IMG/VR virus record: IMGVR_UViG_3300037400_001903 | Coordinates: 13,212 to 77,211 of that record | Length of the DNA stretch: 64,000 nucleotides | DNA from: a virus | Taxonomy: Duplodnaviria > Caudoviricetes | Reading direction: 5' to 3' (one strand) | In this document: positions 1 to 64,000 of the stretch, in pieces | Position numbering within the stretch: the stretch's first letter is position 1 | How the letters are laid out: every line of letters starts with the position of its first letter | The notes under the pieces: model-generated | Databases searched by the model: none | The model's input: only the letters and a program-made list of their open reading frames with translations | What the model was told of the DNA's origin: nothing | Translations under genes and position numbers: made by a program

Positions 1-3000
1 GAATTCTTTTATACTAGAAGCTATTTCATCACCAAATGATTTTTGTATTGATGATATTGTCTTAGCTATAACAGCATCTTTAGCAACACCTAAAGCTGTC
101 TTTAGTCTAGCTCTAGTGTCTTTACTTAAATTAAACTGATTATAAGTAAACAATTCTGTAGCATCTTTAGTTTCTACATAACGCCCATCTAATAAATCTT
201 TAAATTTTTTAGAAGCGAAACCTGTTGCTGAATCTTTGTATGATAATATTTCATCAATTAAGAACTTAGTATCAAGAGCAAGTCTTCTTATAATTTCATC
301 TGATTGTCTTTCACCTATAGCATATTCTGAATAATAAAGGTCACCATCTTTAAAGTCACTAGCTTTAAGTGTTGGATACTTTGAAGCATCTTCTTTTTTG
401 ATAACTTTAATGTAAGAAGTTTTATCATCTAATTTAGCATCATTCATATATAAAGCTTTTGCTTTTAATTCATTATCATTTAAAGAATCACCATTACGTA
501 ATTTTTCAAGTAGTTTTGCTATTGTTACACCAGTACTATTCTCTATTTCTTTTATAACATTAAACTCATTAACTGGGTCATAAGTAGAATCATATAACAT
601 GTTTATTAAATCATCAGCTGCATCCCAAGTTTTATCAGTAGATTTCATTAAAGAATTACCATATTTTTGTAGAGATGCGTCTGGTTTAATTAGCATTACT
701 TTATCTGAGTCAAAGTCTCCACTATGATAAGCCATGAATATATCTGGAGCTAAGATAATATCGTTATAAGTATTATCAACTATTCTAACTCTATAAGTGT
801 GAACTATATTCTGACCTACTCCTGGAACTCTATATAGTGAAATATAAACATAATCTGTTGGGCCTAAGCCTAAAGATTCTTTATAAGATTCTATAGAAGC
901 TCCACCGAATAATTGTTCAAATCTATGTCTAGTTATGCCAATATCAGTAGACTTTAGTTGATACTGTGTGCCGTCTTCTAAAGTTATATTTCTTCCAGGG
1001 ATTATACCTGAAGCCATTACCCAATTTGTAGGAATATCTACAGATTCAGAGAATGTAGACATAGCATCATCTAATGCATCAAAGTAGAAGTTCTTTAGAA
1101 TTCTTGGACCTTTATACTCTATGACAAATTCATTAGTACCAGGCTTATACGCATTTTCGAAGTCACCTGTCTTTAATCCTGTCATTAAATCGAATAATAG
1201 ATTCTTTGTATCATCATCTATATTTTTTAATTCAGCAGCTTTGAAAATCTTATCATAAACTTTTGATACAACAAAAGATTGATAATCTTTTTCAAGTCTT
1301 CTCTTTTCTGATTCAAAGCTTTCCTTAGAAACAGAATCATCTATAAAGTTAATGAAGCTTGTCTCATCATAAGTATTAACAGGTTTCCTGTCTTTGTATT
1401 TAGTATTAAGTAGATATTCTATTTCGTTGATAGGCATCTTTAAGAAATCTTCTTGAGTGAAGTTATCATTCTCTTTTAGTTGCTGCTTCTCTTTTCTGAT
1501 TGAATTAATCATGTCATTCATTAACTCAACGCCTGTTTTAAACTTATCTTCTGTTAATTCAGTACCATCATTATTTATGAATAATAATACTTTATCTCTA
1601 ACTGCATTTAAGTTTGATGAGCCATCATCATTAACATGTAATAACCAATTTAAGAAATCAGATTGATATTCAAATATTAATTCATGTTCAAGATTGTAAT
1701 CTTTCTTATAAAGATATTGAATTTCATCTGAATTTATTACAGCGTTTCTCTGAGTTACTAATTCATTAAGAAGCTTATCAGTCATAGATGTACCATATTT
1801 AGAATATAATTCTCTATAATCTTTAGCATCTTTATCTAAAGCATCTAATTTCCAAATATCATCAAATGATTTTAATGAACCGTCTTCTTGCTTAATAGAT
1901 GTTAATAACTTAAACAATTCAGTTTTATCTATATCATTAGCATCAAGACTTTTAAGTAAGCTATCTATATCTTTATATAGTGAGGCTTTAATTTTCTCAA
2001 CATCTACCAAGTTATTCATTTCATATAAGAAATACTTGTAGGAGAAAATAGCATCATCCATAGCTAAGTGTGATGTAGATTCATCACCTAACTGTCTTCT
2101 TAAATTTGCTAGAGATACAGAAGCTTTATTAATATCTGCATTAGGTGTTATAACTTTTGCAATATCTTCTTGTGTATCAATATGTTCAACAGCATCAGCT
2201 AATTTTCCGATTGAACCAAATTGCTTTTCTATTTTCTTGATATCTGTAGCTCTAGAGTTATGTCCAAGAAGTACAAACTCTTTAAGACCTAATTGAGATA
2301 AAGCATGGCTAATAGCTTCATCTATAGCTTTTAGTACTTCAGTATTTGCATCAGAACTATTTATAGAGAAGATGTATTCATTATTATGTTTTGTTTTAGT
2401 CCTTGTATTATATTTTAAACTGTCTTCATAATTCCTGTAAGCTGAAGCTGCATCCTTATCTGTAGAAGCTAGAGTTTCATAACCAGCTATTTCACTATCA
2501 TCATATTTAATTAAGATTCTATATCTAAGAATATCTTCATCTTTAGTTACAGATAAATCTTTAGAACCTTTAGCTACTGCGAAAGATATCTCATAAATTT
2601 TATCCTCTAGATTTTTACCGAAATAATTTTCAAGGTCGAAATTTACTATAGCTTTACCATCTATAAGCTCAGCAACATTTATTGTTTTTGCTACACTACC
2701 ATCATCATTATGAAGGTCAATCATACCTTCTTGAAGAGAAGTTCTAGCGTAATTCTCTTGAAGTTTATTTAAGTAATCTTCATTTCCTAATAAGAAGAAT
2801 TGTAAATCTTTACCTCTATTACCTGATAATATTTTATATTGGATAATATTAGCAACTGCTTGTTTTCTTTCTTCTGGGTCAGATATATTTGAAACAACTC
2901 TTTTCAAATCTAAAGCATGTAATTCACCATCTTCAGAATCTAAATTATCAATAGCTTTAGTAACATTTATATCATCACTTAAATTATCTAAGGATTCTTT

Positions 3001-6000
3001 AAGAACATCAGTAATGCTATTCTTGAAATCGAGAATGCTTGATGGAACAGAACTCTCATTTATAAAGTAAGTGAAAGCATCTATAGTATCAGCAACCATT
3101 TTGTTTGCTTTCTTTTGAAGAGCATCATATTCTTTGCTAGTTAATGTACCTTTCTTTAAATCTATATGAGATAAAGCTTGGTCTTTCAAACTTAAGAAAT
3201 CTGCAGCAGAATGTAAATTCTCTACTGTCTCTAATGTAGAATGAAGCAATCTATCTACAGCGTAGTTTAAAGATTCAACCATAGCTTCTTTAGTAGCATC
3301 AGGCATATTAGCAAATGTTTTAGATACCTCATCCATTATTAGTGTTTTAGAATTCTGCATATATAATGTTCTGATTTCTGAACGAGTCATATATGAACCA
3401 AGTTGTTTAGCAACTATATCTGCAGCACTATCTGATATAACATCAAAGTCTAATTCATTGTTTCTTTCAAAATAATCTGCAATACAATTTCTGTAAATCA
3501 TATTTCTTAAATAAGAAACATTACCAGACTTTTTATCTAGAGACATTATCTTTATATTCTCACCATAAGAAGAAGCATTTAAAGACATGACATTCTTAGA
3601 GGCATTAAATAAGAAAGCCTTCTTGTAATTTAATTTCTCATCTAATATACCTTTTAAGAATAATTGACGACCTAATGATATAGCTTCTCTACGACCATAG
3701 ATATTATCACCAACATTATCTATATGCCATACATCATTCTCATCTTGATAAGCGATAGTATATCTATTATATGAAGAAGACATATCTGTACCTGTAGTAT
3801 TGAAATAAATCTTCAAAGCTAATTCCATAGCTGTCTTTGAATCTATATCTACAAGCGAGTTATCTTTTAATATAGTTCCTGGTATAGATTTAGCTAAAGA
3901 AGCAATACTTGTAAGCATCTCGCCTAATGCTAGTTTATTTTCCATGTTAGCTACATACACAGAACCTGGATGGTCAACAGTTGGTGTAGTATAAATATTT
4001 AACATTTCTGATAATAATTTAGAGGTTTCACCATTTAATGTTGCAGCAGAAAGTTTCTTGAAGAAAGTATCTTGTTCTTTCTTATACTTAAGTCTTTCAC
4101 TTCTAAATAATATTTCATTAGCGAACTCTTCCATAGCATCATTCTTAATAAATGCTTGGCCTGCAGCATTGATTTGTGTAGTTTCTGTTCCTCTAGAATA
4201 AGTAACTCTTTGAGCAGAATAATCACGAACAAGGTCATTTATTGAGCCTTTAATATTAGTTAAATCATTCATTTGGAAAGGGTTAAACATAACTTTTTTA
4301 TCATGCATAACATATAAGCTACCACTAAATTCTTTACCATTTATATCCCAAACTATTTTAATAGAGTTTGCTGTCTCTACATATATGGTTTTTATTGTTG
4401 CAGTACCATTGTTTAAACTTACTAATAGCTTTAATAAACTTTCATCAGGTCTAGATATTGGTGTAATTAATATTTTATCAGGTAGTTTCGTACCAGTATA
4501 GTGCTCAAAAGAATCACCACAATAATCTACTATATCTTTATCAGCTATTTTTAAATCATCTAATGTTATATAAGAATATTCCTTTAAGCCTTTAGTAGAA
4601 ACATTAATAGCATTAATTGCATCTTTAGACACTACATAATTTTCTTTTGTTATATCTTTAAAGCTATTATTTTCATACTTATCAATTAAAGATAACTTCT
4701 CTTTTAATTGAGGTGTTACCATTCCAAGCTTTTCTAATGCATCAAATTGTTCTCTAGTAAGAACTCTTATATCATCAATACTAATGAAGGCTTTACCTGT
4801 AGATGAATCATATCTAATCATAGAAGCAATATCTGCATAAGGATTATCTTTTTGTAAAATGAATATGTCATCCCTAGAGTTATAAGTTGCAGGTGTAAGC
4901 ATCTTTAATAGACCAACTATTTTCTTAACTGTTTCTGCATTATAACCAGAATCTAAAGCAATCTTAGTATAGTCAAGTTTATCAACTATAGCCTTGCCAT
5001 CATAATCAATACCAAAGTTTCTGTATTCACCCATGTTTTTCTCAACAGCCTCAGCTATTTTATTTAATTGGTCTTTATCAAATACTATATCTATTTCTTC
5101 TTTAGTGAATCCTCTTGAGGCTAAAGCATCTATAGTCCTTTGGTTCTCTGATTTTAAATAAGACTTTATAATACTCTCAAGATTTTTTGTTATATCCTCT
5201 TCAGATGAATAACCTTTAATATTTAAAGAAGTATTACTAATGAAAGATTTGAAATCTTCTATAGTATCAAATCTATCAAAGTTCTGACCTTTAAGGAAAT
5301 CTAAGAAGTTTGCACCACCAGCACTTAGTCCTTCAACTTTAATAGTATCAAAATTATAAGTTTGTTCTGGTAGCTGAGCAATTTCTAATTCATTAGGTAA
5401 TACAAACATACTTCTTAAATTTATATTACCATTCTTATCAGAGAAATTTTTAATTATATAAGGTAATGTCCAATTATCTGCTTTAACATTTGTTATTACA
5501 ACCTTATGCATTTTACCAGGTAAATCTTCATTAATGAATTCATATAATGAAGAAGTCTTTTTTGTGAAGTTTTTATATTCCTCATCTGACATTGTGACTG
5601 AGTATAATGAAGTATCACTCTCAGTTTTAACATAAGCATTAGCTGCTTTTATTAAATATAATAATGTTATAGCATTACCAAATGCACCATCATCATTCAT
5701 GTCAGAGAATAATTGTTTATAAGAATAACTATTAAAATATTTTCTACTAGTTTCATTATCTATCTTAGATGCAGCTTTACCTAACTTTAACATACAAGTT
5801 ATAATTTCTTTAGCAGCATCTAAAGATATAGCATCTTTAGTTAAAGTAATACTAAACATTTTATTAATAGCATCTAAGTTTAAAGAATCAATATCAGCAT
5901 CAGATACTAATACACCATATCTATCCTTAACAGCAAGTTTAACATCTAGCTTCTCTTTATTATTTAAAAAGACTAGAGAGTTATCATCTGTAATAATTCT

Positions 6001-9000
6001 TGAAAGTTGCATTAGTTTATTATAATTTTCTAGAGTTAAATTAAATTCTAAACCTCTTGAAGAATCTGATGTGAAACTAATTCCAGGTTTATCTAAACTT
6101 CTACCTGATTCTAACATAGAATTTACTTCTACTTCAGAATAACCTATAGAATACATCATGTTCTTAAAATCATTTAACTCAGCTGTATTGTTTCTATCAA
6201 ATGTTAGAACACTTGTTTCATTATCTGTTTGCAATCTACATAAAGCTCTAAGAGTATCTATGTTTCTAGCATTGCCTAATTTCTTTTCTAGGTTAGCTAT
6301 TATAGTTTTACTACCAACAGATAATGCTTCTTTAGAACTTTCAACCTCTAATTCACGGACTAAATTATGAAATTCTTTTGTTTCTAATTGAGATAAGTTA
6401 ACAATTATTAAATCTTTTTTGTTATAACGAACAGTATCTTTTAAAAGCTTGCCGTATGTAATTAAAGAATTAATTAGTTCATCCTTAAGTAGATTAGCAT
6501 CTATATCTTCTGAACGTAAAGCTAAGAAGGTATCAACGAAATCAGTTATTTCCTTTTCGTTTGTTAAATAATCGTCTAAGTCTAGATTTCTTAGAGTTTG
6601 GCCCAAAGATGTTTGTAAAGGATTTTCTTTTACTAGCTCCAACTGACCTTCTGTAAAAGCTATCAAGCCCTCAAGTCCACTGAAGAAATCATTTCCAACT
6701 AATTTGTCTTTAATCAATAACTGTTGAACTTCTTTATCTTCTAATACTTTCTTGATAGCACTGTCGAGATTTTTAAGGTCAGTTGAAGAAACGTCATTGC
6801 TATCGCCAGATTTTTTAGCAGCTTGAAGTTTTCCAGAAAGTTCTTTGATTTCACCAGTAGTTTTATAATACTCTAAGTATTTCTTTGTATTAGATACAGC
6901 TTCGTCATTTCCTGTTGTGTCTATCTCATCATAAGAAATTCCTAGCTTATCAAATATATTTATAAGTTGTATTCTACTTATTGCATCTATTTTAGAAGAA
7001 GCAAGTGTACATAAATATGTAGCAATTAATTTTCTAGCTCCTTCTTTATATTCTGCAGAATCTAAGAAATGAGTGTTCTCACTGTTATTGAAAGCAGCAA
7101 CACCATTTTCTATATTAGCTTTGATTGTTTCAAAATCTTTTAAATAAGCCTTAGCAGTTTTACCTTGACAAATTTGAAGATTATTTCTTACGAATATATC
7201 TATTAATAAGTCACAACCAGATTTAATCTTGTCTGCTTCTTTAGTCATGTTTAAGCAGAATAAAGCTCTCAATGCTGTAGCTATTGAGTCTGCTTGTTTT
7301 AATTGACCAAAGATTGTATTTTCAAAACAGCCAACTTGTACATATATAGTTTGCACTTTACCTGTTTTATCTAGATACTGCACTTCATTGAATAATCCTG
7401 CAATAGCTAAAGCTCTCATAGCATTATCAAAATTAGGGTTTAACATATCTTGTAAGTAATCATTATGATAAGCCTCATTCATTTTGAAAACATTGGAATC
7501 ATTTAATAAAGTTCTTGCAGCTGCTTCATTAGGTTCAATACCTAAGATTTCTCCAGCAACTTTTTGGAAGTCTTTGTTTATAACTAAGTCTTCATATTCT
7601 GGAACCAATTTACCGTTAGAATCATTAGCTATATGGTCTATTATTACATACTTATCAAAAGAGTCTGAGAACTCTGAACTATTAACATTATTATAATCAT
7701 CAGGTCTAGCTTCTGAATAGAAGTTCATCTCTTTAAGAATAGACTCATCTAGTGATGCTTTCAATCCTGCCATACTTAGTACATCATTTAACTGTTGATG
7801 TAAAGAAATTTTACCACCCTTCTTATCATCAACTGTTTTAATATGAATATGTTTTTGATAAGAAGCATCATCAAAGTTTTCGCCCACAGATTTAAAAGTA
7901 TTGTTGATAGCATCATATTGTTCTTTAGTCAAAGTAAGAACTTTATCTGGGGTATCTAATTTAATACCGACAGAACTTAATACAGATTTAATTCTTTCGT
8001 TTGACATAACAAAGTCTTTATCTATTGTATAAGTAGTTATAGTTGTATTAGTTCCTTGGAATTCTTTAGCATTAGATTCAAACTCATTCTTAGCTCTTTC
8101 GTAAGCTTGTCTAATACTAAACTCACCTTTTAATACAGAGATATTAGTATTATAAAGAGTGTTGTACATCTTTTGATACATCATTAAATCATAAGAATTT
8201 CTTGCTATAATTTTTTCCACAGCTGATTCTTTGATATTAGCTAAAACTATAGCTCTGATACCACCAGCAGATTTTTCGTCTTTAGTTAATCTAGATAAAG
8301 TTTTTTCATCTATTCCTAATACATCAGTAGAAACATCTGTTGATACTTCACATAGGAATGTTAAAGCTTTTATTGTAGCAGAAATTTCTGATTCACCTTT
8401 ATCTCCAACACGAAGAGCCATAGCTGGTTCTATAATATTAGTTAATATTTTTTGAGCAGCTTCTGGATTCTTCTCAACCATAGAAGCATAACGCCCTCTT
8501 ATTGTATTAATAGCTGTATCATAAGTTTTACTTAAGTTATCTACAGATGTAATTGCTGCTCTAATATATTCGTCATCATCTAGGTGAGGGCCAATTAACT
8601 TACCTTCATCAGTTCTTCCGAAGAACTTGAATCCCATATCTTGCTTAGCAATATATAAGTTTGTAAGAATAAATTGTGGGTTTAAAGTTATATTCTTCAT
8701 GTTCTCCCAGAAGTTACCATCTTTACTAGATAATGTAGCAGTAGTAGTTTGAGTTACAATATTTTCTATTATATCTGCAACTGTATCAATAGATTTAGTG
8801 TAAACTGATTTACCTATACTTCTTAAAGATTCAACACCAATTTGGTTTACAAAATTATTTAAAGTTTCATTAGATACTTTGCTACTTAAATCACTAATCT
8901 TATCTTGAATAGCTTTTTCATAAGCACCTCTTTGTCTAAAGAAAGATGTAACACCACTATCTCCAACAGCTCTTAGTGCAAATGATGTAAGAGTATTAAT

Positions 9001-10728
9001 ACCTATATTAGCTAAACCTCTACCAATAATCTCGCCTTCTGATAATTTTTCATCCTCACTAAGCATTTGATTTTGTATTGAAAGTTTAGTCATTGTTGAG
9101 ACACCATCACGTAATGCAAGTGTAGCAGCTGTTACAAATCTATTAGCCATAGCATGTTCAGCAAGCTTAGGTACAATAGAAGTAACGCTACCTCCTCTTA
9201 ATCCTGAGTAGGTACGAGTAGCAAATGCTGCACCTTTTAATACTGCTGTTCCAGCTTGAGCAAATCCTTTAGAAACACCACTTGCCATATTTGCAGTAGC
9301 ATTTGCAGCTGTTTTAGCTGCATTATTTATAGCTCCAGTTAATCCTGCAGAAGCAATCATACCAACGATTGTACCTGTAGCATTAAGTATTCCTCTAGCC
9401 CAGTCGTCACCTTCGCCCCATTGGAATCCTTGGAAGTCTTTTGTATTAACACCACCAAAAAGAATGTTGTTATTTTTAAAAGCATTCCAATCTAACATTA
9501 TATCATCATTACCACACCAGTGTCCTACTAATCCTACAACTTGTGCACCGAAATCAAATAGGCTTGTGAATACAGAGAAGAATGAACCAAGGAAAGAATC
9601 AACAGCTTCTTGGAAAGCACCGTTACCTAGCCAACCATGAGTTGTTACTCTATCAACAACTTTGTTTCCATCCTTATCTGTTTCATAATAAATCTTACAT
9701 GTATTGTTACCAGTACCTGATGAACCTTCAGCTGCATAAAGCTTACCATCAGTACTATAGTAATAATCGTAAGTACCATCATTATCTATATCAATGAATG
9801 GGTTAAACATATTTATGTCAACGAATCCACCTCTATATAATTTAATAAATTGTTCTTCTGATTCAAAGTAACTTGAGATTGCTGCGAACTGGTCAGCAAA
9901 TAGAGTCTTAATATCTTCAGCAGTTACTTCTCCACCTGAAGCCCATACTACTGCATTCTCTTTTAGTCTATTTAAAGAAGCAGCTTCGTACCAAGATTCA
10001 GCTTGAAATTTTTCTTCAGCCATAGAAAGAACATCAGACAAGAATGTTGATGAGTTTAAAGGATTTGAATAATCACCTTTCTTAGCTTTGTTATACCAAT
10101 ATAAAGAAGAATCAAAGTCATAGCCTTGAGCTTTAAGAATATCTTTACCATAAGCTTTGTATAAGAAATCAGCATATCCAATGTTACCTGCTTTATATTC
10201 AGCATGTAACTTTTTTACTTTCTCTTCAGCTAGTAAAAGCTTTGCTGTTGTTTCAAAACCTTTTGGAACGAAACCTGTTTTATTATAGTACTCTGTAAAA
10301 GATTCTCTATCAGATAAACCACAAGCTCTCTTTAAATCAGTATACTTTGTAGTACCTAATGAGTCCCTATATAAAGCTTCAACTGAATCATCCAATGGTT
10401 CTCCAGTAGGAACGTAAGATTCTACAGAACCTTCAGGTGCATAGGTTGTACCTTTATCTCCACCTAATATAGTTGAAATATCTGAAGAAGAATATTCATC
10501 TAGGTTAGGTCGTATGACTCCTGTACTTGCATTTAAAAAACCATCTTGCTGTGCCTTTTGCTCGTTGTCATCCAACTTAATGTCGAACTTATTTGAGCCA
10601 GTACTAGGAGATGGCGTTAAAAGAGTATCGTCAATTTCTTTATTAGAACCTGCGATATCGTCATTAACATTTTGAGTTAATTCATTAAAAATATTATTGT
10701 TCTTATAATCTGTGTTTTGTCCTTGCAT
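1..10728 (-). CDS. Giant (>=3576 aa, 3'-partial) putative virion-ejected polyvalent protein with DEDDh exonuclease and two-barrel RNA polymerase (beta-prime-like) catalytic domain
   Basis: ATG at 10728 after AGAGAGGGG RBS and a SigA promoter. I read the frame codon by codon and found no stop to position 1. N-terminal Gly/Ala-rich hydrophobic segments (about 8950-9550); exonuclease motifs FDLE/GHN..D/HLAMDD (2053-2640); LYRVP...YHSGDFDSDKV (700-835). Confidence 0.9.
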   Translation of the reverse strand, partial: MQGQNTDYKNNNIFNELTQNVNDDIAGSNKEIDDTLLTPSPSTGSNKFDIKLDDNEQKAQQDGFLNASTGVIRPNLDEYSSSDISTILGGDKGTTYAPEGSVESYVPTGEPLDDSVEALYRDSLGTTKYTDLKRACGLSDRESFTEYYNKTGFVPKGFETTAKLLLAEEKVKKLHAEYKAGNIGYADFLYKAYGKDILKAQGYDFDSSLYWYNKAKKGDYSNPLNSSTFLSDVLSMAEEKFQAESWYEAASLNRLKENAVVWASGGEVTAEDIKTLFADQFAAISSYFESEEQFIKLYRGGFVDINMFNPFIDIDNDGTYDYYYSTDGKLYAAEGSSGTGNNTCKIYYETDKDGNKVVDRVTTHGWLGNGAFQEAVDSFLGSFFSVFTSLFDFGAQVVGLVGHWCGNDDIMLDWNAFKNNNILFGGVNTKDFQGFQWGEGDDWARGILNATGTIVGMIASAGLTGAINNAAKTAANATANMASGVSKGFAQAGTAVLKGAAFATRTYSGLRGGSVTSIVPKLAEHAMANRFVTAATLALRDGVSTMTKLSIQNQMLSEDEKLSEGEIIGRGLANIGINTLTSFALRAVGDSGVTSFFRQRGAYEKAIQDKISDLSSKVSNETLNNFVNQIGVESLRSIGKSVYTKSIDTVADIIENIVTQTTTATLSSKDGNFWENMKNITLNPQFILTNLYIAKQDMGFKFFGRTDEGKLIGPHLDDDEYIRAAITSVDNLSKTYDTAINTIRGRYASMVEKNPEAAQKILTNIIEPAMALRVGDKGESEISATIKALTFLCEVSTDVSTDVLGIDEKTLSRLTKDEKSAGGIRAIVLANIKESAVEKIIARNSYDLMMYQKMYNTLYNTNISVLKGEFSIRQAYERAKNEFESNAKEFQGTNTTITTYTIDKDFVMSNERIKSVLSSVGIKLDTPDKVLTLTKEQYDAINNTFKSVGENFDDASYQKHIHIKTVDDKKGGKISLHQQLNDVLSMAGLKASLDESILKEMNFYSEARPDDYNNVNSSEFSDSFDKYVIIDHIANDSNGKLVPEYEDLVINKDFQKVAGEILGIEPNEAAARTLLNDSNVFKMNEAYHNDYLQDMLNPNFDNAMRALAIAGLFNEVQYLDKTGKVQTIYVQVGCFENTIFGQLKQADSIATALRALFCLNMTKEADKIKSGCDLLIDIFVRNNLQICQGKTAKAYLKDFETIKANIENGVAAFNNSENTHFLDSAEYKEGARKLIATYLCTLASSKIDAISRIQLINIFDKLGISYDEIDTTGNDEAVSNTKKYLEYYKTTGEIKELSGKLQAAKKSGDSNDVSSTDLKNLDSAIKKVLEDKEVQQLLIKDKLVGNDFFSGLEGLIAFTEGQLELVKENPLQTSLGQTLRNLDLDDYLTNEKEITDFVDTFLALRSEDIDANLLKDELINSLITYGKLLKDTVRYNKKDLIIVNLSQLETKEFHNLVRELEVESSKEALSVGSKTIIANLEKKLGNARNIDTLRALCRLQTDNETSVLTFDRNNTAELNDFKNMMYSIGYSEVEVNSMLESGRSLDKPGISFTSDSSRGLEFNLTLENYNKLMQLSRIITDDNSLVFLNNKEKLDVKLAVKDRYGVLVSDADIDSLNLDAINKMFSITLTKDAISLDAAKEIITCMLKLGKAASKIDNETSRKYFNSYSYKQLFSDMNDDGAFGNAITLLYLIKAANAYVKTESDTSLYSVTMSDEEYKNFTKKTSSLYEFINEDLPGKMHKVVITNVKADNWTLPYIIKNFSDKNGNINLRSMFVLPNELEIAQLPEQTYNFDTIKVEGLSAGGANFLDFLKGQNFDRFDTIEDFKSFISNTSLNIKGYSSEEDITKNLESIIKSYLKSENQRTIDALASRGFTKEEIDIVFDKDQLNKIAEAVEKNMGEYRNFGIDYDGKAIVDKLDYTKIALDSGYNAETVKKIVGLLKMLTPATYNSRDDIFILQKDNPYADIASMIRYDSSTGKAFISIDDIRVLTREQFDALEKLGMVTPQLKEKLSLIDKYENNSFKDITKENYVVSKDAINAINVSTKGLKEYSYITLDDLKIADKDIVDYCGDSFEHYTGTKLPDKILITPISRPDESLLKLLVSLNNGTATIKTIYVETANSIKIVWDINGKEFSGSLYVMHDKKVMFNPFQMNDLTNIKGSINDLVRDYSAQRVTYSRGTETTQINAAGQAFIKNDAMEEFANEILFRSERLKYKKEQDTFFKKLSAATLNGETSKLLSEMLNIYTTPTVDHPGSVYVANMENKLALGEMLTSIASLAKSIPGTILKDNSLVDIDSKTAMELALKIYFNTTGTDMSSSYNRYTIAYQDENDVWHIDNVGDNIYGRREAISLGRQLFLKGILDEKLNYKKAFLFNASKNVMSLNASSYGENIKIMSLDKKSGNVSYLRNMIYRNCIADYFERNNELDFDVISDSAADIVAKQLGSYMTRSEIRTLYMQNSKTLIMDEVSKTFANMPDATKEAMVESLNYAVDRLLHSTLETVENLHSAADFLSLKDQALSHIDLKKGTLTSKEYDALQKKANKMVADTIDAFTYFINESSVPSSILDFKNSITDVLKESLDNLSDDINVTKAIDNLDSEDGELHALDLKRVVSNISDPEERKQAVANIIQYKILSGNRGKDLQFFLLGNEDYLNKLQENYARTSLQEGMIDLHNDDGSVAKTINVAELIDGKAIVNFDLENYFGKNLEDKIYEISFAVAKGSKDLSVTKDEDILRYRILIKYDDSEIAGYETLASTDKDAASAYRNYEDSLKYNTRTKTKHNNEYIFSINSSDANTEVLKAIDEAISHALSQLGLKEFVLLGHNSRATDIKKIEKQFGSIGKLADAVEHIDTQEDIAKVITPNADINKASVSLANLRRQLGDESTSHLAMDDAIFSYKYFLYEMNNLVDVEKIKASLYKDIDSLLKSLDANDIDKTELFKLLTSIKQEDGSLKSFDDIWKLDALDKDAKDYRELYSKYGTSMTDKLLNELVTQRNAVINSDEIQYLYKKDYNLEHELIFEYQSDFLNWLLHVNDDGSSNLNAVRDKVLLFINNDGTELTEDKFKTGVELMNDMINSIRKEKQQLKENDNFTQEDFLKMPINEIEYLLNTKYKDRKPVNTYDETSFINFIDDSVSKESFESEKRRLEKDYQSFVVSKVYDKIFKAAELKNIDDDTKNLLFDLMTGLKTGDFENAYKPGTNEFVIEYKGPRILKNFYFDALDDAMSTFSESVDIPTNWVMASGIIPGRNITLEDGTQYQLKSTDIGITRHRFEQLFGGASIESYKESLGLGPTDYVYISLYRVPGVGQNIVHTYRVRIVDNTYNDIILAPDIFMAYHSGDFDSDKVMLIKPDASLQKYGNSLMKSTDKTWDAADDLINMLYDSTYDPVNEFNVIKEIENSTGVTIAKLLEKLRNGDSLNDNELKAKALYMNDAKLDDKTSYIKVIKKEDASKYPTLKASDFKDGDLYYSEYAIGERQSDEIIRRLALDTKFLIDEILSYKDSATGFASKKFKDLLDGRYVETKDATELFTYNQFNLSKDTRARLKTALGVAKDAVIAKTISSIQKSFGDEIASSIKEF

Positions 10729-16183: not shown

Positions 16184-16202
16184 GACGAGCGTTTACCTCG
16201 TC
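16184..16202 (-). promoter_or_regulatory. GTAAACG-loop hairpin, copy 2
   Basis: Minus strand GACGAG-GTAAACG-CTCGTC. Confidence 0.7.
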
Positions 16203-16717: not shown

Positions 16718-16736
16718 GCTGGCGTAAACGGCCAGC
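16718..16736 (+). promoter_or_regulatory. GTAAACG-loop hairpin, copy 3
   Basis: Plus strand GCTGGC-GTAAACG-GCCAGC upstream of the rightward operon. Confidence 0.7.
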
Positions 16737-20043: not shown

Positions 20044-21591
20044 ATGGAAAGATTTGCTAATATTAATGCTATGTTGGGAGTAGGTATGCTCCCTTTATTT
20101 GAACTAAAGTCTGGTAATAGATTATTAGTTCTTTGTGATAACTCTAAGGTTATCATTGAAGTTCCTATCGTAGAATCTGGTAAGAGTTTCTACGGTTATG
20201 TCAATACTAGTAATGAACAATTAGAGACAGCTATCTCTAATTTCATCACTGATAATTTTAAGTCTACATATCCTGATATGACTCGTAAGGTTACTATCAA
20301 GACTAAGCCTTATGCTTTTACTGCTGATGATTTTATTGTTACAGGTATTGCTAAACAATCTGTTGGTGGTTTACAAAAGTATACTTATTATGAGAAGCTT
20401 TTGGCACCAGAAGGATTTGATTTCTCTGCATTTAAGAAGTCAGTAGTTGTTTCTACTGCAAGAGATTATTCTGCTTGTCAATTAGATGAGGAAGCTCAGA
20501 TGGTTCTTAAAGATAACGCAGCAGTCTTCAGTTATTTTACACCTAATATAAATGACTGGGCTGACAATGTTAAGCTTGCTTATTATGCTGTTCAACAAGG
20601 CAAGGTTAATCTTGTTATCTTTAAGGGACCAGCTGGAACTGGTAAATCAATTCTTGCTAGAGAGTTTGCTTATCTAATGAAAGCTCCTCTATTATCTATG
20701 CAGTGTACTGATGGAACAACTGCTGATGATTTGATGGGTAAAGCTGTAGTTAATACTGACCCATCTGTTCCTGGTCAATTTACTTATGCACTTGGACCAG
20801 TTCTTAAGTGTAGAAATAAAGGTTGGCAACAACTTCTTGATGAAGGTAATATGTCACAAGCTAACTGTATCAATATCCTTAACCAGTTTGGTGATGATAC
20901 TAATATTATTGAATGGGATGGTAAGTCTTATACTTGTTCTCCTAACTTTGTATTGTATTTCACAATGAACTCTGGTTATGAAGGAACTAATTCATTAAAC
21001 GCTGCTTTAAAATCTAGAACTATTGTTGTAGATGTTCCTAGATTAACTAAGACAGAGTTTGCTGATAGACTTTTTACTTATGTAACTAATAAATTATCAG
21101 CTACATTAAGTAAGGATTTCTGTAAAGAGGTATTTTCTTTTACAGAATATATGCAAGAGACTGCTAAAAAGTTTGCAGAGAATGTAGAGTTCTGTATCAG
21201 AAATGGGCAAAAGTTATGTGCTTTAGTTTTAACTAAGGCTTGTAGTGAAAGTGAATTCACTGCTGCAGTTTATGAATCTTATGTAGATTTCTTATCTATG
21301 GATAATGATAACACTGACACTTTAAATATTTTAAAGCAGTCTGTTGAAATGAAAGACAAGATTAAGAAACTATATAATCTTTATGATTATAAGGTTGTTG
21401 AATCTGTTGATGAGTCTAAGTTATTCAGCTTTGATGATGTTCTATTTATTGATGATGAAGATTCATCTTCAAATACAACTACATCAGGTTTTACTTCTAA
21501 TGAATCATCTTCATTTGATGAGGACTTAGATGATTTAGATAATTTCTTGAATAGTGATGCCAAAGAAATAAATGAAAATGAGGAGGCTTAA
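20044..21591 (+). CDS. MoxR/CbbQ-type AAA+ ATPase
   Basis: Walker A GPAGTGKS, Walker B LLDE, FTMNSGYEG..LNAALKSR; acidic tail. Confidence 0.85.
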   Translation: MERFANINAMLGVGMLPLFELKSGNRLLVLCDNSKVIIEVPIVESGKSFYGYVNTSNEQLETAISNFITDNFKSTYPDMTRKVTIKTKPYAFTADDFIVTGIAKQSVGGLQKYTYYEKLLAPEGFDFSAFKKSVVVSTARDYSACQLDEEAQMVLKDNAAVFSYFTPNINDWADNVKLAYYAVQQGKVNLVIFKGPAGTGKSILAREFAYLMKAPLLSMQCTDGTTADDLMGKAVVNTDPSVPGQFTYALGPVLKCRNKGWQQLLDEGNMSQANCINILNQFGDDTNIIEWDGKSYTCSPNFVLYFTMNSGYEGTNSLNAALKSRTIVVDVPRLTKTEFADRLFTYVTNKLSATLSKDFCKEVFSFTEYMQETAKKFAENVEFCIRNGQKLCALVLTKACSESEFTAAVYESYVDFLSMDNDNTDTLNILKQSVEMKDKIKKLYNLYDYKVVESVDESKLFSFDDVLFIDDEDSSSNTTTSGFTSNESSSFDEDLDDLDNFLNSDAKEINENEEA

Positions 21592-21595
21592 TATT

Positions 21596-22081
21596 ATGGC
21601 AAAGAAAAATATTAATTATGAAGATGTAGCAGTAGAGGTTACTGCTATGTCTTCTAAAGACGCAATTATTTTATCAGGTAATGACAAGTCAACACCTGCA
21701 ACTTTATATGATACTGTTAGAGCTATGGCTGCTTTAGATAACACTATTAGTAATTGTAGTAAAGCTAAGGATTTATTACAAGAGACTCTTAATTCTTATA
21801 GTGAGTCTGATATTAAAGCATTATTCCCTCAGGGTTATGCTAGTATTAATGGTAAGATATATCAGATTAGACATAAAATTGAGAGTAAGATGGATTATAA
21901 TGTTGATACTTTAGCTAGTATGCCTGAAGCTAAACCTTATTTATCAGTTGTTCCTGCTTACAACAAGCTTGATAAAGCTGCTTATAATAAGGATTTACTT
22001 GCTGGCTCAGTTGATGCTAAAGTATCAGCAGCTATATCCATTACTACTCATGAATCTAATGAGTTAAAGGAGGTGAAATAA
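21596..22081 (+). CDS. Hypothetical protein (paralog of 19553-20032)
   Basis: C-terminal LAGSVDAKVSAAISI. Confidence 0.7.
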   Translation: MAKKNINYEDVAVEVTAMSSKDAIILSGNDKSTPATLYDTVRAMAALDNTISNCSKAKDLLQETLNSYSESDIKALFPQGYASINGKIYQIRHKIESKMDYNVDTLASMPEAKPYLSVVPAYNKLDKAAYNKDLLAGSVDAKVSAAISITTHESNELKEVK

Positions 22082-22083
22082 TT

Positions 22084-22449
22084 ATGGCTCTTAATTTTAA
22101 TTCTGTAGAGAATGCAGCTTACTATATGAAGTGTAGTCTAGAGAAGAAAGGTTATCAGGTTGAAGCTACATCTGCTCCTTCTTCTCTTTCTTCTGGTGCT
22201 AGCTCTGATTATAGAAAGTTTGTTTCTTTTTCTCAAAGAATTCTAGATGGTTCTGGAGTTCTTAAAGGTTATATAACTTATAGAGTAACTTTAACTACTT
22301 CTGTTAAACGTCCTAAGTTTAGTAGTTATGAGTTATTCGATGAAGTTTATAACTCTGTTCATAAGGTGCATCTTAAAGATTATCCTACTGCTGATGATTG
22401 CTTTAAAGATGTATACAATTATATACTTGACCATTATAAAATGGTATAA
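22084..22449 (+). CDS. Hypothetical protein
   Basis: 121 aa with AAGGAGGTG RBS. Confidence 0.7.
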   Translation: MALNFNSVENAAYYMKCSLEKKGYQVEATSAPSSLSSGASSDYRKFVSFSQRILDGSGVLKGYITYRVTLTTSVKRPKFSSYELFDEVYNSVHKVHLKDYPTADDCFKDVYNYILDHYKMV

Positions 22450-22465
22450 TTAAGGAGGTAGAATT

Positions 22466-24403
22466 ATGGCAACAGTATATGATTCTTTAAATTTTATTAG
22501 ATACATTTATTCATCTAAGTTATTACCTAGATTTAAAATGTTATCTAAAGGTATGTTAGTTAAAGGTGGCGTTTATTGTTCATCTAATGTTTTATTTAAT
22601 TTTACTAGACAGGCTGATTCTGCTTATTGTAGATTAGCATCTTCATCTACTAGTTCTATTCCTGTATTTAAGATTGTTTTAGGTGGTACTTTAATTCGAA
22701 ATGTTTGTGGTTTACCTTATAATACTTCTAATCGTTTGGTTTTAAAGAGTGCTGTTGATGATATTAAGATGTCAACTGTCGCTCTTTTCTTTCACGAAAT
22801 GGGTCATCTTTTGTATACAGATATGACTGATACTAGAATCCTTAACTATAAGGATAAAGATTATATTAATTTTATCCATAGTATTCATAATATTTTTGAG
22901 GATGTTTATCTTGAGAAGTTTGGTCTTCGTAGAGATTATCCTGTTACTCAAAAGTATTTTAAGTTTTTAACAGCTAGAGTTTTTATTTCTCAAGCTAAAT
23001 CTTATAGTGATGATGGTTCTTCTCAAAGTTTTATTAATTATATTTTATTGAAACTTCGTTGCCCTAAAACTTTAACAGCTAAGAATGCTGTGTTTGATTC
23101 TGTATCAAAAGATATTTTGCCTATGTTTTCTGATATCCTTCATGATGATGATGGTACTAGCAGAATAACTAAGCAGATAGCTTTAGCTGAATGGCTTATA
23201 GCTAATACTTCATTAGACTTTAAGACAGTTACTCCACCAGAAGAGGAACTTCCTACAGGTGTTGGTCCTGGTTCAGGTCCTGCTAAGCCTGGTAAACCTG
23301 AGACAGGAGCTGGTGGTGGCGTTGGTTCTAATGCTCAAAACGGTGCTGGTGACCCAACTAATCGTGGTGGAAATAGAGGTTCTGGTGACATTGAAGATAA
23401 TCCTACACCTGAAGAGCGTCCTGTTTTTAAATCATTAGATGAGATGGAGCAATCTCTAGAAGACGAAGACATTGTTCCAACTTATAATGAAGAGAATGAT
23501 ATTCGTGTTGATGATTTACAGGAGATTGATGATGCTTTCAATAGTGTTTTATCTATTGATGCTATTGGAAATCATGAGTGGGTTATTGCAAACAAGATGT
23601 TTGGCTTTGGACCTAATGTTAAAGAAGCTGTAGATAAAGCTATGCTTGATATGAATCCTATTGCTTTACAAGTTATTAAATCTCTTAAGTTATTTAAAGG
23701 TCAAATTAGACCTAGAAATACTGCTGGATTTAATTCTGGCAAGCTTCATATTCCTACAGCTATTAAGTCTGTATCATCTGGTTTGCCTACACCTTATCTT
23801 TTTCAAAGAAAGATAGCTCGTGGTCAAGCTGCTGATTTGGCTATTAGTATTCTATGTGATAATTCAGGCTCTATGTCTGGTAATAAATCACATGTATGTA
23901 CTAGAGCTATGTTAGCATTAGCACAAGCTTGTGATAATGTAGGTATACCTATTGAAGTTAATTGTTTTACTAATGGTTCTACTAACTATACTATTCAGAT
24001 GAAGTCTTTTGAAGATAAGTTTGCTGATTCCAAATATTATTTTGGTATTACTGATAGTGATATATGTTATCATTATACTTTTGATAGTGATATTCCTGTA
24101 TTCTGTAGTAATGAGGATGAAGTTAATTTATATAATGTTTGGAAAAGATTCCTTAAGAATAAACATAAAGATAAACTTATCTTTGTTATTTCTGATGGAC
24201 AAACTTGTGGTTCTTCATCTGATTTAAGAGGTCTTATTCAAGAGATAAAGCAATCTGGTGTAAAGATAATTGGTTTAGGTATTCAATCTAAAGCTGTTGC
24301 TTCATTGTATCCTGAATATAAATTATTTGATACTGAAAGTTCTTTACAAGGCTTACCAGATTATCTTCTTGAAACTCTTAACAGCTTAATAAGAAAAGAT
24401 TAA
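22466..24403 (+). CDS. VWA-domain protein (CobT-like MoxR partner) with N-terminal HExxH motif
   Basis: FFHEMGH...NIFED; Gly/Pro linker; MIDAS DNSGSM and ISDG. Confidence 0.85.
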   Translation: MATVYDSLNFIRYIYSSKLLPRFKMLSKGMLVKGGVYCSSNVLFNFTRQADSAYCRLASSSTSSIPVFKIVLGGTLIRNVCGLPYNTSNRLVLKSAVDDIKMSTVALFFHEMGHLLYTDMTDTRILNYKDKDYINFIHSIHNIFEDVYLEKFGLRRDYPVTQKYFKFLTARVFISQAKSYSDDGSSQSFINYILLKLRCPKTLTAKNAVFDSVSKDILPMFSDILHDDDGTSRITKQIALAEWLIANTSLDFKTVTPPEEELPTGVGPGSGPAKPGKPETGAGGGVGSNAQNGAGDPTNRGGNRGSGDIEDNPTPEERPVFKSLDEMEQSLEDEDIVPTYNEENDIRVDDLQEIDDAFNSVLSIDAIGNHEWVIANKMFGFGPNVKEAVDKAMLDMNPIALQVIKSLKLFKGQIRPRNTAGFNSGKLHIPTAIKSVSSGLPTPYLFQRKIARGQAADLAISILCDNSGSMSGNKSHVCTRAMLALAQACDNVGIPIEVNCFTNGSTNYTIQMKSFEDKFADSKYYFGITDSDICYHYTFDSDIPVFCSNEDEVNLYNVWKRFLKNKHKDKLIFVISDGQTCGSSSDLRGLIQEIKQSGVKIIGLGIQSKAVASLYPEYKLFDTESSLQGLPDYLLETLNSLIRKD

Positions 24404-27860: not shown

Positions 27861-29375
27861 TTATGCAGTTTGACTTATTAAGATATAAGCTTTTAAGTAG
27901 CTGCAAGCTATTGATTTAGCATTTCTAATTGCTGTATCAATGCTTGTGAAGCTATCAATTATTCCTTTCTCATATAAATTAACTATGCAATTATTTTGTA
28001 CGTCTAGCCCACATTCTAAATCTTCTAGTGTCATACGCTTTGGCTTCTTCAAGCCTGCATTACTGATGATTTTCAAACAAGGTTCTTGTAATGCTTTTAT
28101 AATGTGTTTGTATTTGCCTGATAAGGAAAGTAAATATAACGCTTTACCACCACCAGGAAGAATACCATCACGACAAGCACAACGAACTGCACCTATCGCA
28201 TCATCTAATTTTAAACGAATCGTAGTGAATTCAGTAATAGTCTGTGCAGCAATCTTAATCTTAGTTACACCTGCTGTTAGGTTTGCTAAACGTCTGTTGA
28301 TAACATCAGTTCTGATTATTCCTGTGTTGAATTCCTTGTCTTCAAGTTCCTTCTTGTAAGACTTAACTCTCTTCTCAACTTCTTTTGAATCAGAGCTGCA
28401 AAGTATTGTAGTCTTGTCTTGCTCAACAATAATCTTGTTAGCTGTTCCTGCATAAGCTAAACTGTAATCAGTTGTGCCTAGTGTAGGTGATTGAATCTTA
28501 CCGTTTGAACGAGCAGCAATGTCTAAGAATACTTCCTCTGGTTTAGAGTCGTTGATAAATACAATCATGAATCTTAATTTGTTTTGAATAAGATTATCTA
28601 GTAATATCTTTAAGCTTTCAGGACTGAAATCTTTTGATAAGAAGAATACTAATGGTTGATTTGGATTTTCAATCGAGTCAAATAATACTTTGATTCCGTT
28701 TCGTGTTAAGATTCCTTCAGCTAATAGGATTAGTCTAGCATTTTCTGCTTCCCATTTTCCCTCATCATTGCATAGTTGTTTCATTTCATCTGAGAAATAT
28801 CCTGAATCAATAACCATACCATCAACATGTTCGATAGAAGATTCAGCTGACTTACGGTCATGCTCAATAATAACATTCATGTTTGAACCTGCATACTTGT
28901 AAGCTTCAGCTACTAGTTCACCGATGGCAGGTATCTTAGTTGTTATATTAGCAACATTTCTTACCATGTCAGGTGAATCAATAGGCTTCTTCATAGTTTG
29001 TAAATCCTTTAGAGCTGCTTCAACCTCTTCATTTATCATGTCAGATGCTTCTTGTGGATGCTTTCCCTTCTTTATTAGGTCTAGCCCAGCTTTGTATAGC
29101 TCATTAGTTAATAAAACTGTTAGAGTTGTACCATCAAAAGCTCTCTTCTCTGTGTTGTTAGCAGCCTCAATAATAGATAATGCAACCATTCTTTCAAACT
29201 GGTCATCAAATTTCATGCATTCTTTCGCAACAGTAACACCATCGTCAGTTAGGAAAGGTCTAGAGAATTCATCCTGTAGAACTGCTAGCCTTCCCTTAGC
29301 TCCCATTGTAGGAGTAACGATGTCACTCATCTTTTGAAATGTTTCTTTTATTATCTTGATGTCTTTTGTCTTCAT
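27861..29375 (-). CDS. groEL: Phage-encoded GroEL-like chaperonin
   Basis: TMGAKG, TDDGVTVAKE, FDGTT, DDA..A...GILPGGG; start moved to MKTKDI after AAGGA; no GGM tail. Confidence 0.92.
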   Translation of the reverse strand: MKTKDIKIIKETFQKMSDIVTPTMGAKGRLAVLQDEFSRPFLTDDGVTVAKECMKFDDQFERMVALSIIEAANNTEKRAFDGTTLTVLLTNELYKAGLDLIKKGKHPQEASDMINEEVEAALKDLQTMKKPIDSPDMVRNVANITTKIPAIGELVAEAYKYAGSNMNVIIEHDRKSAESSIEHVDGMVIDSGYFSDEMKQLCNDEGKWEAENARLILLAEGILTRNGIKVLFDSIENPNQPLVFFLSKDFSPESLKILLDNLIQNKLRFMIVFINDSKPEEVFLDIAARSNGKIQSPTLGTTDYSLAYAGTANKIIVEQDKTTILCSSDSKEVEKRVKSYKKELEDKEFNTGIIRTDVINRRLANLTAGVTKIKIAAQTITEFTTIRLKLDDAIGAVRCACRDGILPGGGKALYLLSLSGKYKHIIKALQEPCLKIISNAGLKKPKRMTLEDLECGLDVQNNCIVNLYEKGIIDSFTSIDTAIRNAKSIACSYLKAYILISQTA

Positions 29376-29481
29376 AAATTCCTTTGTCTTCCTCTTCGTC
29401 ACTATTTATAGCAGCTACTATAGCAATGGCTATGATGATTCCTATGAATATCACACCCATTATTATGTATACTTTAGTCAA
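29323..29481 (-). CDS. Small single-pass membrane protein between groES and groEL (not in the ORF track)
   Basis: TTG start overlapping the groES stop (alternative ATG at 29460): YIIMGVIFIGIIIAIAIVAAIN then an acidic/charged tail; 3' end overlaps the groEL start. Confidence 0.55.
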   Translation of the reverse strand: MTKVYIIMGVIFIGIIIAIAIVAAINSDEEEDKGIYEDKRHQDNKRNISKDE

Positions 29482-29761
29482 TAGCCTCTGCGTCCTTTAC
29501 TAATACTAATATAATATCTTTAGCATTAACAGCGAATCCTTCGAATCCATCAAAGTTGATTGGCTGTGCTGCGAACATAGGATAGTAGATAATATTACCT
29601 ACCTTAAGACAATCCTTTCTGTTAGAGATAACAATCTCTCCACAGATGATGTCTTTCTTTCCTCTCTGTTCAGTTGCTGATACTACTAGTCCTGCTTTAG
29701 TAGTGACCTTTTCAGTTATCGGTCTGATAATTACATTTCCATTCAAACAATTATATTTCAT
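29474..29761 (-). CDS. groES: GroES-like co-chaperonin
   Basis: LNGNVIIRP...TTKAGLVV...GEIV...LKVGNIIYY...KDII; adjacent to groEL. Confidence 0.85.
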   Translation of the reverse strand: MKYNCLNGNVIIRPITEKVTTKAGLVVSATEQRGKKDIICGEIVISNRKDCLKVGNIIYYPMFAAQPINFDGFEGFAVNAKDIILVLVKDAEAID

Positions 29762-43646: not shown

Positions 43647-43999
43647 TTAATCTTTAAATGTCATATAATATTTGAATGCTTTTCCTTTAGGAGCATCTTT
43701 ATCTTCTAAGAATTTCTTAGCAAGTCTAACATAAGATGATGTATCATTAGTTACTGCTCCATAGTAATCTGAATAAATCATATTCATTACATAGTTCCAA
43801 TCATACTCATTGAAGTATTCAAACATTATGCCATTTGCTTTTGCAACAGATGTTGTTTGCTCTACTATGCCTAGGATAAATATTGACGAGTTGCTTTAAT
43901 GTTTTATCTAGTTCAGTTTCAAAGTCTTCTTTTAATTCTGCTGCACGGATATTTTCATCATGTGTTTTAATTATCTCTGATTTAGTTAGTTTGTTTCTC
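43647..43999 (-). pseudogene. Split locus: 61 aa ORF plus an out-of-frame C-terminal fragment of a conserved small phage protein
   Basis: ATG 43999 ORF ends at 43819; another frame encodes EQTTSVAKANGIMFEYFNEYDWNYVMNMIYSDY...FLEDKDAPKGKAFKYY to the stop at 43647. Confidence 0.45.
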
Positions 44000-44956
44000 C
44001 CCATGGACTCCTCCTTGTTTGTTATAATTTTTTGTAAATTCTTCATAATCCTTAAAGACACTCATTGCACCACATAAAGAACAACCTTTATGACAGTAGC
44101 TTGGATATTTATTTAATCTAAAAGCTTCTAATGGTTCAGCATTTTTACATCCCTTCATACCATCAACAAATCCTATATGATAATCATAATCAACTCTAAA
44201 GTAATCATAATCAAGAGTGCATAAGTATCCTCTTAACGGGATTGTTTTATAGTCTCCATATTTTTTTACTAATCCTCTTAATGATTTACAATATTCAGTA
44301 TGGTCATCATAAGATATTTTATATTCGTCTTTTTTGTTTTCACTGGTCTCCACAATTAGCCCAGAAATATCGGTTTCGTTACAATCAGCGTCTATAAGAT
44401 ATATTATATTATTTTCTTCACATCGTTTTATAAGTTCATTAACTTGCTCTAGATTATTTCTTGTTGAAACCATCTCGACTTTAAATAAAAAATGGTCATT
44501 AAAATTTAATTTTTTTATCTTTTCAAAAAAATTATCTAGAGTTGTGAACTCATAATGGAACGAAGCTACTATTGATAATTCTATATTATGCTTAGTGCAT
44601 ACATCTATTAAATCGTTGTAATATTCTGCTGACTTACTAAGATTACTTATAAAAGATATACGCTTTAAATTGTTTGGGATTTCGTTATATAATCTTTCTA
44701 TTATATCTTCCAGATTAAATAACGAAACCTCACCACCAATTAATTCTATTTTTGTATCAACATTTTTCTCCCTTATTATTTTGGCAAGTTTTGGTATTGT
44801 GTTGATAACTGTTTGCTCGTCTCTTTTATAATTTTCAATATTGTCTCTTTTGTTTTTTCTCAAACAATATGAGCAGTTATAATTACAACAGTTTGTTATT
44901 CTCCATTTAACAGTTAATGGAAATTCATTAAGATTTACTATACTGTTAAAATCCAT
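43982..44956 (-). CDS. Radical SAM protein B
   Basis: CNYNCSYC, IGGE, SNLS, SFHYEF, C-terminal Cys cluster. Confidence 0.9.
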   Translation of the reverse strand: MDFNSIVNLNEFPLTVKWRITNCCNYNCSYCLRKNKRDNIENYKRDEQTVINTIPKLAKIIREKNVDTKIELIGGEVSLFNLEDIIERLYNEIPNNLKRISFISNLSKSAEYYNDLIDVCTKHNIELSIVASFHYEFTTLDNFFEKIKKLNFNDHFLFKVEMVSTRNNLEQVNELIKRCEENNIIYLIDADCNETDISGLIVETSENKKDEYKISYDDHTEYCKSLRGLVKKYGDYKTIPLRGYLCTLDYDYFRVDYDYHIGFVDGMKGCKNAEPLEAFRLNKYPSYCHKGCSLCGAMSVFKDYEEFTKNYNKQGGVHGEKQTN

Positions 44957-44964
44957 AAATTCTC

Positions 44965-59644: not shown

Positions 59645-59645
59645 T

Positions 59646-62558: not shown

Positions 62559-62559
62559 A

Positions 62560-63705: not shown

Positions 63706-64000
63706 TTATTCTTGAGGGAACTTAACTCCATCTGCTACGCCAGTGATTTGAACTGAAGTTGCACCATCAGCGATACCCTTAGGTAAACCATTGTTTTGGT
63801 AGCTGAAGAATGTACCAGGTTCAGTAACCTTACAATGCTTAAGAACTGCATGGCATCTCCAAGCATCAATATACATATCAGCATACTTATTCATGATACC
63901 TTCATACATTTCTGTACCAGGTCTACGTTGTAATACACCGTTAACTTCTCCTGAAGTAATCCAAGTAAAGTCACGTCCTACAAGTTCACCAATCTTAGTT
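63706..64000 (-). CDS. Major capsid protein, C-terminal part (5'-partial)
   Basis: Frame open to the window edge: FTWITSGEVNGVLQRRPGTEMYEGIMNKYADM resembles HK97-fold podoviral capsid C termini; followed by a terminator and head-tail genes. Confidence 0.65.
   Translation of the reverse strand, partial: TKIGELVGRDFTWITSGEVNGVLQRRPGTEMYEGIMNKYADMYIDAWRCHAVLKHCKVTEPGTFFSYQNNGLPKGIADGATSVQITGVADGVKFPQE

Follow-up and report, generated by a model that had tools for sequence, protein, structure and literature searches.

The locus described here raises the question of what is encoded by a reading frame that continues beyond the end of the analysed DNA. The window, i.e. the whole stretch of 64,000 nucleotides that was analysed, corresponds to C1:13212-77211 of a 77,211-base virus record (IMGVR_UViG_3300037400_001903; Caudoviricetes). 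On its minus strand there is no stop between an ATG at window position 10728 and base 1, which amounts to 3,576 codons. An earlier note had reported this frame and proposed that it encodes a protein of at least 3576 amino acids (aa) with the catalytic domain of a two-barrel RNA polymerase (RNAP). Translation confirmed the stop-free frame, and the size stands as a lower bound: over the full record the next stop comes only at C1:6327, which gives a gene of 17.6 kb (C1:6327-23939) and a protein of 5,870 aa, referred to as the giant in the following. With a little more confidence than doubt we read the giant as a single-chain two-barrel RNAP from a new and very rare lineage, fused to a DEDDh exonuclease and probably virion-borne. 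The barrel fold, the second barrel, the polymerase activity, the packaging and the injection are what we infer for this protein.

The reading starts from a short acidic motif. Translation of window positions 1-1200 on the minus strand placed the peptide, the R-x-P motif at R3300 (823-831) and the D-F-D-S-D motif at D3338 (703-717) exactly where the earlier note had put them. A pentapeptide of the form [DN][FYW]DxD was present in 46% of residue shuffles of the Asp-rich giant and thus proves nothing on its own. RxP followed by DFDxD 25-45 residues further on was found in 0.8% of the shuffles. We then compared the 5,756-column profile of the protein family with full-length E. coli RpoC and obtained a single match, in which aa 3323-3388 paired with RpoC 446-520, the part with NADFDGD and LMMSTNN, at 35% identity over 65 columns (E 0.041). 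Sub-profiles aligned with a beta' profile of 80 species at E 0.005-0.012, and 1 of 150 column shuffles scored as high. For phi14:2 gp66 as a single sequence, hhalign matched aa 3235-3419 to gp66 1257-1438 over 173 columns (E 0.0053), pairing YRVPGVGQN with YRIPNQGQS and DFDSDK with DFDIDK. Against a 68-sequence profile of the gp66 family the E-value was 0.0014 and the score 34.5, compared with 16.5 ± 3.2 for column shuffles (maximum 27.3), none of which reached it (0 of 192). When this profile was scanned over all 5,870 residues there was one clear match, at aa 3299-3349. For P23-45 gp96 the top alignment fell on the DFDGD barrel of gp96 (E 0.046). In each comparison, whether with beta', gp66 or gp96, the best local alignment was to the reference's own catalytic DxDxD barrel (E 0.0014-0.046). 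An Asp barrel with DxDxD and a preceding RxP strand, both marks of the two-barrel RNAP superfamily, can thus be recognised at the sequence level, and the beta' double-psi barrel pattern that the earlier note had claimed is matched by profile alignments to the DxDxD loop of three unrelated RNAPs.

Other methods pointed to the same region with less force. A home-made HMMER profile of the proteobacterial beta' barrel placed its best domains on the DFDxD region with E-values of only 0.014-0.095. The language-model neighbours of aa 3215-3560 include a cluster carrying PF05183 (eukaryotic two-barrel RNA-dependent RNA polymerase) with a score of 0.83, which is a weak lead only. In divergent viral RNAPs similarity is confined to the neighbourhood of the DxDxD (bioRxiv 10.1101/2022.12.01.518664), and the alignments obtained here follow that same pattern, with similarity limited to the catalytic loop.

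We found only two full-length relatives in a search of 5.8 billion clustered proteins and 1.84 billion representatives: P0004 (5,917 aa, 87% identity to the giant) and P0005 (5,771 aa, 43-49% identity). A word-index search recovered both and additionally returned P0006, one C-terminal fragment from a further lineage. With aa 3180-4100 as the query, phmmer matched P0005 alone among the 1.84 billion representatives, and the P0005 contig was the single match in a scan of the JGI metagenomes. Scans of IMG/VR gave no homolog of the giant and tblastn against 50,697 phage records gave no match to it. The contigs of the relatives are 77,952 and 78,398 bp long; the former, from JGI, carries P0005 and shows the order giant, 526-aa ORF of TerL size, 643-aa ORF of portal size. 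As equally long orthologs occur in two independent assemblies, the giant open reading frame (ORF) is not an assembly artefact: it is real and conserved, and its family is extremely rare.

The three proteins also indicate which residues are retained. S3240-G, R3300-VPGVGQN, D3338, D3340, D3342 and K3343 are invariant in all of them, and at 43% overall identity the two candidate Lys and the residues of the exonuclease described below are likewise unchanged. The approximately 200 residues around the triad form a local conservation peak with 50-60% identity. The earlier note had named a lack of conservation of the DxDxD in homologs as a reason to drop its reading; all three Asp are invariant in every homolog found. 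It had also called the DFDSD triad unusual, which did not hold. Ser occupies the fourth position in two of the proteins and Gly in P0005, so that the 43%-identical ortholog has the canonical DFDGD and Ser is a detail of the lineage, not a trait of the family. Strong variation is confined to aa 2010-2170 of the giant (window about 4200-4700, minus strand): in the comparison with the 5,771-aa ortholog, 57-78% of the columns there are gapped, between conserved flanks. This part may represent an exchangeable insertion or a module on the surface.

Further elements of a polymerase core were looked for downstream of the triad. The segment DSATGFASKK (aa 3499-3508) is invariant and resembles by eye the bridge-helix core GKSGVGITAN of gp66 and NSGYLTRRL of beta', which we treat as a lead. 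It lies about 160 aa past the triad compared with 182 aa in gp66, for which the bridge-helix coordinates are published (bioRxiv 10.1101/2020.03.07.982082). The alignment of aa 3472-3511 with beta' region F reached E 0.49. Further along, aa 3535-3557 aligned with residues 1598-1621 of the gp66 trigger loop region (hhalign E 0.084). A colinear global alignment of aa 3215-3560 with gp66-family positions 1230-1645, running from the Asp barrel to the trigger loop, scored 16.1 compared with 3.3 ± 2.4 for shuffles (z 5.4); 0 of 155 shuffles reached this score and the trigger-loop segment was retained.

The second domain of the proposed fusion is an intact exonuclease domain at aa about 2690-2900. The Pfam model PF00929 (RNase_T) matched with E 2.2e-4 and 22.3 bits, just under its curated cut-off of 24. 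Together with this family-model match we observed the DEDDh signature (D-x-E, D, H-x4-D), and none of D2698, E2700, H2823, N2824, D2829, H2887 or D2892 varies among the three proteins. The domain is located about 330 aa upstream of the Asp barrel in the same polypeptide. We know of no fusion of a DEDDh exonuclease with a two-barrel polymerase.

A two-barrel enzyme requires a partner for the Asp barrel. The earlier note could not find the beta-like barrel and suggested that it might lie beyond the window. There we indeed found a candidate in cis with two Lys: an invariant GNK-x9-KGT at aa 3847-3861 (C1:12357-12401), 510 aa downstream of the Asp barrel, which is reminiscent of GDK-x7-KGV in beta and marks aa about 3730-3870 as a candidate Lys barrel. 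The partner would have been missed before because it would lie outside the window. A GNK-x9-KG pattern occurred in 2.1% of shuffles. A segment with ACSSR, aa 3757-3802, aligned with beta 841-886 at E 0.028, and 4 of 150 shuffles scored as high. Upstream of the Asp barrel, aa 2900-3240 gave noise against a profile of the gp66 double-psi beta barrel B (DPBB-B) and connector, with 26 of 80 shuffles as high. An order of Asp barrel and then Lys barrel is possible for the giant.

Several results weigh against reading the giant as a polymerase. Part of them concern the second barrel: the match to beta was only rank 3 in a scan of the whole protein, the Lys-barrel candidate was at noise level against the beta and gp66 DPBB-B profiles, and the language-model neighbours of aa 3690-3900 are target-recognition domains of methyltransferases (score 0.93, few shared features), so that the candidate is left without profile support and the language model points elsewhere. 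The described single-chain enzymes have the order Lys barrel, connector, Asp barrel (bioRxiv 10.1101/2022.12.01.518664; bioRxiv 10.1101/2020.03.07.982082); the opposite order is unprecedented and the reverse of every one of them. Searches of Pfam, PHROG and PDB sequences matched nothing in the giant except the exonuclease domain, and the Pfam models PF00623 and PF00562 gave no candidate in the phage genome; phmmer and a two-sequence profile returned only noise from the PDB sequences. With no more than three sequences in the family, HHalign gave low probabilities (1-17%). AlphaFold2 models, built on alignments of two to three sequences, were of low confidence, scoring 41.7 (aa 3180-4100) and 48.9 (aa 3225-3420) in the predicted local distance difference test (pLDDT), and neither Foldseek against the PDB nor a wide search with VIA-align found a meaningful match for these low-confidence models. 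The low-confidence secondary structure across aa 3294-3347 consists of three strands, a helix, a loop and a further strand, an order that by eye agrees with the segments of the E. coli beta' sequence around NADFDGD and would lend weak support to the barrel.

Among the known systems, the region is matched best by phi14:2 gp66 (PDB 6VR4; Crassvirales), which like the giant is a very large phage protein with a DFDxD Asp barrel. YRxP..GQ and DFDxDK[MV] align in this best profile match (E 0.0014), the candidate bridge-helix and trigger-loop segments follow at a comparable distance, and gp66 tolerates a residue other than Gly at the fourth motif position (bioRxiv 10.1101/2020.03.07.982082), as the giant does. 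However, gp66 has 2,180 aa compared with 5,870 and the similarity is limited to about 170-330 residues. The fourth residue is Ile in gp66, with DFDID in 66 of 67 relatives, whereas the giant family has DFDSD or DFDGD. The giant also differs in its fused exonuclease, in the lack of a detectable gp66-like DPBB-B and connector upstream and in a TerL that is not crAss-like. It falls outside the gp66 family, as it shows neither full-length orthology nor DFDID nor the Lys barrel-connector-Asp barrel layout.

The Thermus phage protein P23-45 gp96 is a giant polypeptide too (5,002 versus 5,870 aa) and has been described as a minimal two-barrel RNAP fused to non-polymerase parts, i.e. a virion RNAP fused to a tape measure (bioRxiv 10.1101/2022.12.01.518664). 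In gp96 the polymerase occupies the N-terminus (aa 1-1,200), and the gene belongs to the tail module after the head genes, whereas the core of the giant is central (aa 3235-3870 of 5,870) and its gene precedes TerL; the alignment between the two reached only E 0.046. These differences in core position and gene location place the giant outside the gp96 type. With bacterial beta' (RpoC) it shares the NADFDGD/LMMSTNN-like region, and its GNK-x9-KG resembles GDK-x7-KG of beta (RpoB). Yet the separate Pfam models of beta and beta' are silent on the giant, which is a single chain in which the beta'-like part would precede the beta-like part.

A different kind of likeness exists to N4 gp50, the giant virion RNAP of a podovirus of about 70 kb, which is packed and injected and reads early genes from hairpin promoters. 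The lifestyle proposed for the giant is alike, and three hairpins with the loop GTAAACG are present in the hub of its phage. N4 gp50 is a T7-like single-subunit (right-hand) polymerase with a fold unrelated to two-barrel RNAPs; Pfam searches found no T7-like polymerase domain in the giant. By analogy, the giant most resembles gp66 and gp96 in its presumed working mode although it lies outside both families.

The position of the gene fits such a working mode. The giant opens a leftward operon of giant, TerL, portal and capsid genes, directly upstream of TerL and not in the tail module, with the tail fibre genes coming afterwards. We also observed conserved hydrophobic segments near both ends of the protein (near aa 383-480 and at aa 5426-5444). 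The analogy of delivery with N4 gp50, gp66 and gp96 is drawn from these two features, and the following sequence of events can be proposed. The giant would be packed in the capsid and threaded into the cell along with the phage DNA. The central part of the protein (about aa 2690-3870) would comprise the DEDDh exonuclease and then a divergent two-barrel RNAP core, in which an Asp barrel bearing DFD[S/G]D is followed by segments resembling the bridge helix and the trigger loop (aa 3472-3557) and perhaps by a Lys barrel. Once delivered, the giant would start transcription of the earliest phage genes without relying on the host polymerase, possibly with the GTAAACG-loop hairpins serving as its promoters, and the exonuclease may process nucleic acid ends or edit transcripts. 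A role as the tape measure protein was also considered and set aside, given the gene position and a separate tail protein of 1,271 aa.

How far this reading can be trusted depends on the competing explanations. The resemblance to polymerases may be due to chance or convergence, in which case the giant would be a structural or ejection protein whose acidic loop binds metal structurally, without any polymerase ancestry. The frequency of the pentapeptide among the shuffles, E-values of only 1e-3 to 5e-2, the silence of the family models and the terminal hydrophobic segments, which resemble those of ejection and tape-measure proteins, are all compatible with this. Yet three independent references align on their own catalytic loops, the shuffle tests gave 0 of 192 and 0 of 155, the conservation peak and the invariant motifs coincide exactly with that site and the gene lies before TerL outside the tail module; we therefore regard this explanation as unlikely. 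Somewhat less probable still is a descendant that no longer polymerises and has kept the Asp barrel alone as a nucleic-acid-binding or scaffold module beside an active exonuclease. A second barrel that escapes the profiles and a fourth motif position that varies between Ser and Gly would be expected in such a protein, but gp66 itself tolerates a residue other than Gly there, and the Asp triad, the RxP strand and both Lys of the candidate pair are invariant across 43% identity, as is typical under catalytic selection.

We give the least credence to an active polymerase that is not delivered and would act as a middle or late RNAP inside the cell, or as a polymerase whose product is proofread by the DEDDh domain. 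The exonuclease directly upstream of the core in one chain speaks for it. However, other genes of the phage already supply a family A DNA polymerase, primase, helicase and exonuclease, and a 17.6-kb gene that heads the packaging and head operon and encodes terminal hydrophobic segments fits virion cargo better. Beyond the favoured reading of an exonuclease-fused, probably virion-borne two-barrel RNAP, a bolder version can be formulated: a third independent lineage of phage-delivered two-barrel RNAPs with a permuted beta'-then-beta order, joined to an exonuclease, injected as a 660-kDa protein and possibly reading GTAAACG hairpins. Taken as a whole we consider this doubtful, though not as improbable as the rival explanations.

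Single-chain two-barrel RNAPs are few (YonO, crAss gp66, P23-45 gp64/gp96 and QDE-1 types), and such enzymes are central to ideas on the origin of cellular RNAPs and of RNA interference polymerases. If the giant is one of them, a lineage beyond Crassvirales, from the ruminant gut, fused to an exonuclease and maybe with permuted barrels would widen this picture. It would also mean that the injection of a phage's own two-barrel transcriptase evolved repeatedly, and it would provide a natural test of whether barrel order matters. With three full-length sequences and no model match the family is nearly invisible to current tools, and thus similar enzymes may hide in other giant phage ORFs.

The features are listed in Table 1.

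Table 1. Position of the features in the 64,000-nucleotide window and the basis on which each was assigned.
Feature	Window position	Strand	Basis or remark
N-terminal 3,576 codons of the 5,870-aa giant	1..10728	(-)	full gene = window -6884 to 10728
DEDDh (RNase T / DnaQ-like) 3'-5' exonuclease, aa about 2690-2900	2029..2661	(-)	PF00929
beta'-like (Asp) double-psi barrel candidate, aa 3235-3350	679..1026	(-)	hhalign vs gp66, beta', gp96
R3300-V-P3302 in invariant YRVPGVGQN	823..831	(-)	aligns with gp66-family YRIPNQG and beta' NRAPTLH
D3338-F-D-S-D3342, candidate Mg-binding triad	703..717	(-)	translation, ortholog comparison
LMKSTDK	631..651	(-)	aligns with beta' LMMSTNN just past the catalytic loop
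Candidate region-F / bridge-helix segment, aa 3472-3511	196..315	(-)	by-eye resemblance
Candidate trigger-loop segment, aa 3526-3557	58..153	(-)	hhalign vs gp66 trigger loop region
Hairpins with GTAAACG loop	15170-15188, 16184-16202, 16718-16736	(-), (-), (+)	

With respect to the genome as a whole, the first 149 nucleotides of the contig recur at its end (C1:1-149 and C1:77063-77211, the latter being window 63852-64000) with 148 of 149 identical. This terminal repeat indicates a circular and complete genome of 77,062 bp. The record is labelled as linear and 71% complete despite this circular complete assembly, and the contig junction cuts the major capsid gene. Apart from the giant, the complete genome yielded neither an RNAP candidate nor an ORF of at least 150 aa with a DxDxD motif. 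Elsewhere it encodes a family A DNA polymerase, primases, a helicase, a separate exonuclease, a GroEL-like protein and radical SAM proteins. TerL is less than 30% identical to that of any GenBank phage, the giant has no PHROG match and there was none to Crassvirales PHROGs either; the earlier description of a non-crAss phage agrees with the first two of these results. The only run with the whole stretch is a bovine gut metagenome, which is the sole evidence for the habitat and may be the source of the contig. Goat and bovine gut runs with a small share were left out of the habitat evidence, and the runs listed included no RNA run.

The three hairpins are perfect, with GC-rich 6-bp stems that differ from each other and an identical 7-nucleotide loop, and are located in a divergent intergenic hub. 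Two of them face the leftward operon and one faces rightward. They are candidates for promoters or terminators used by a phage polymerase.

Some neighbouring genes deserve mention. The GroEL-like chaperonin (window 27861-29761, minus strand) matched Pfam Cpn60_TCP1 with E 7.6e-35, and the 95-aa ORF that immediately precedes it on this strand is likely GroES. Two adjacent radical SAM proteins of 324 and 318 aa (window 43982-45921, minus strand) are encoded between the tail and the replication genes. An early gene pair on the plus strand (window 20044-24403) encodes an AAA ATPase resembling the CobS/MoxR type and a CobT-like protein (PHROGs 249 and 17276). At window 56510-62567 on the minus strand, a 1,044-aa tail fibre with collagen repeats adjoins a 973-aa protein with a CBM_5_12 carbohydrate-binding module.

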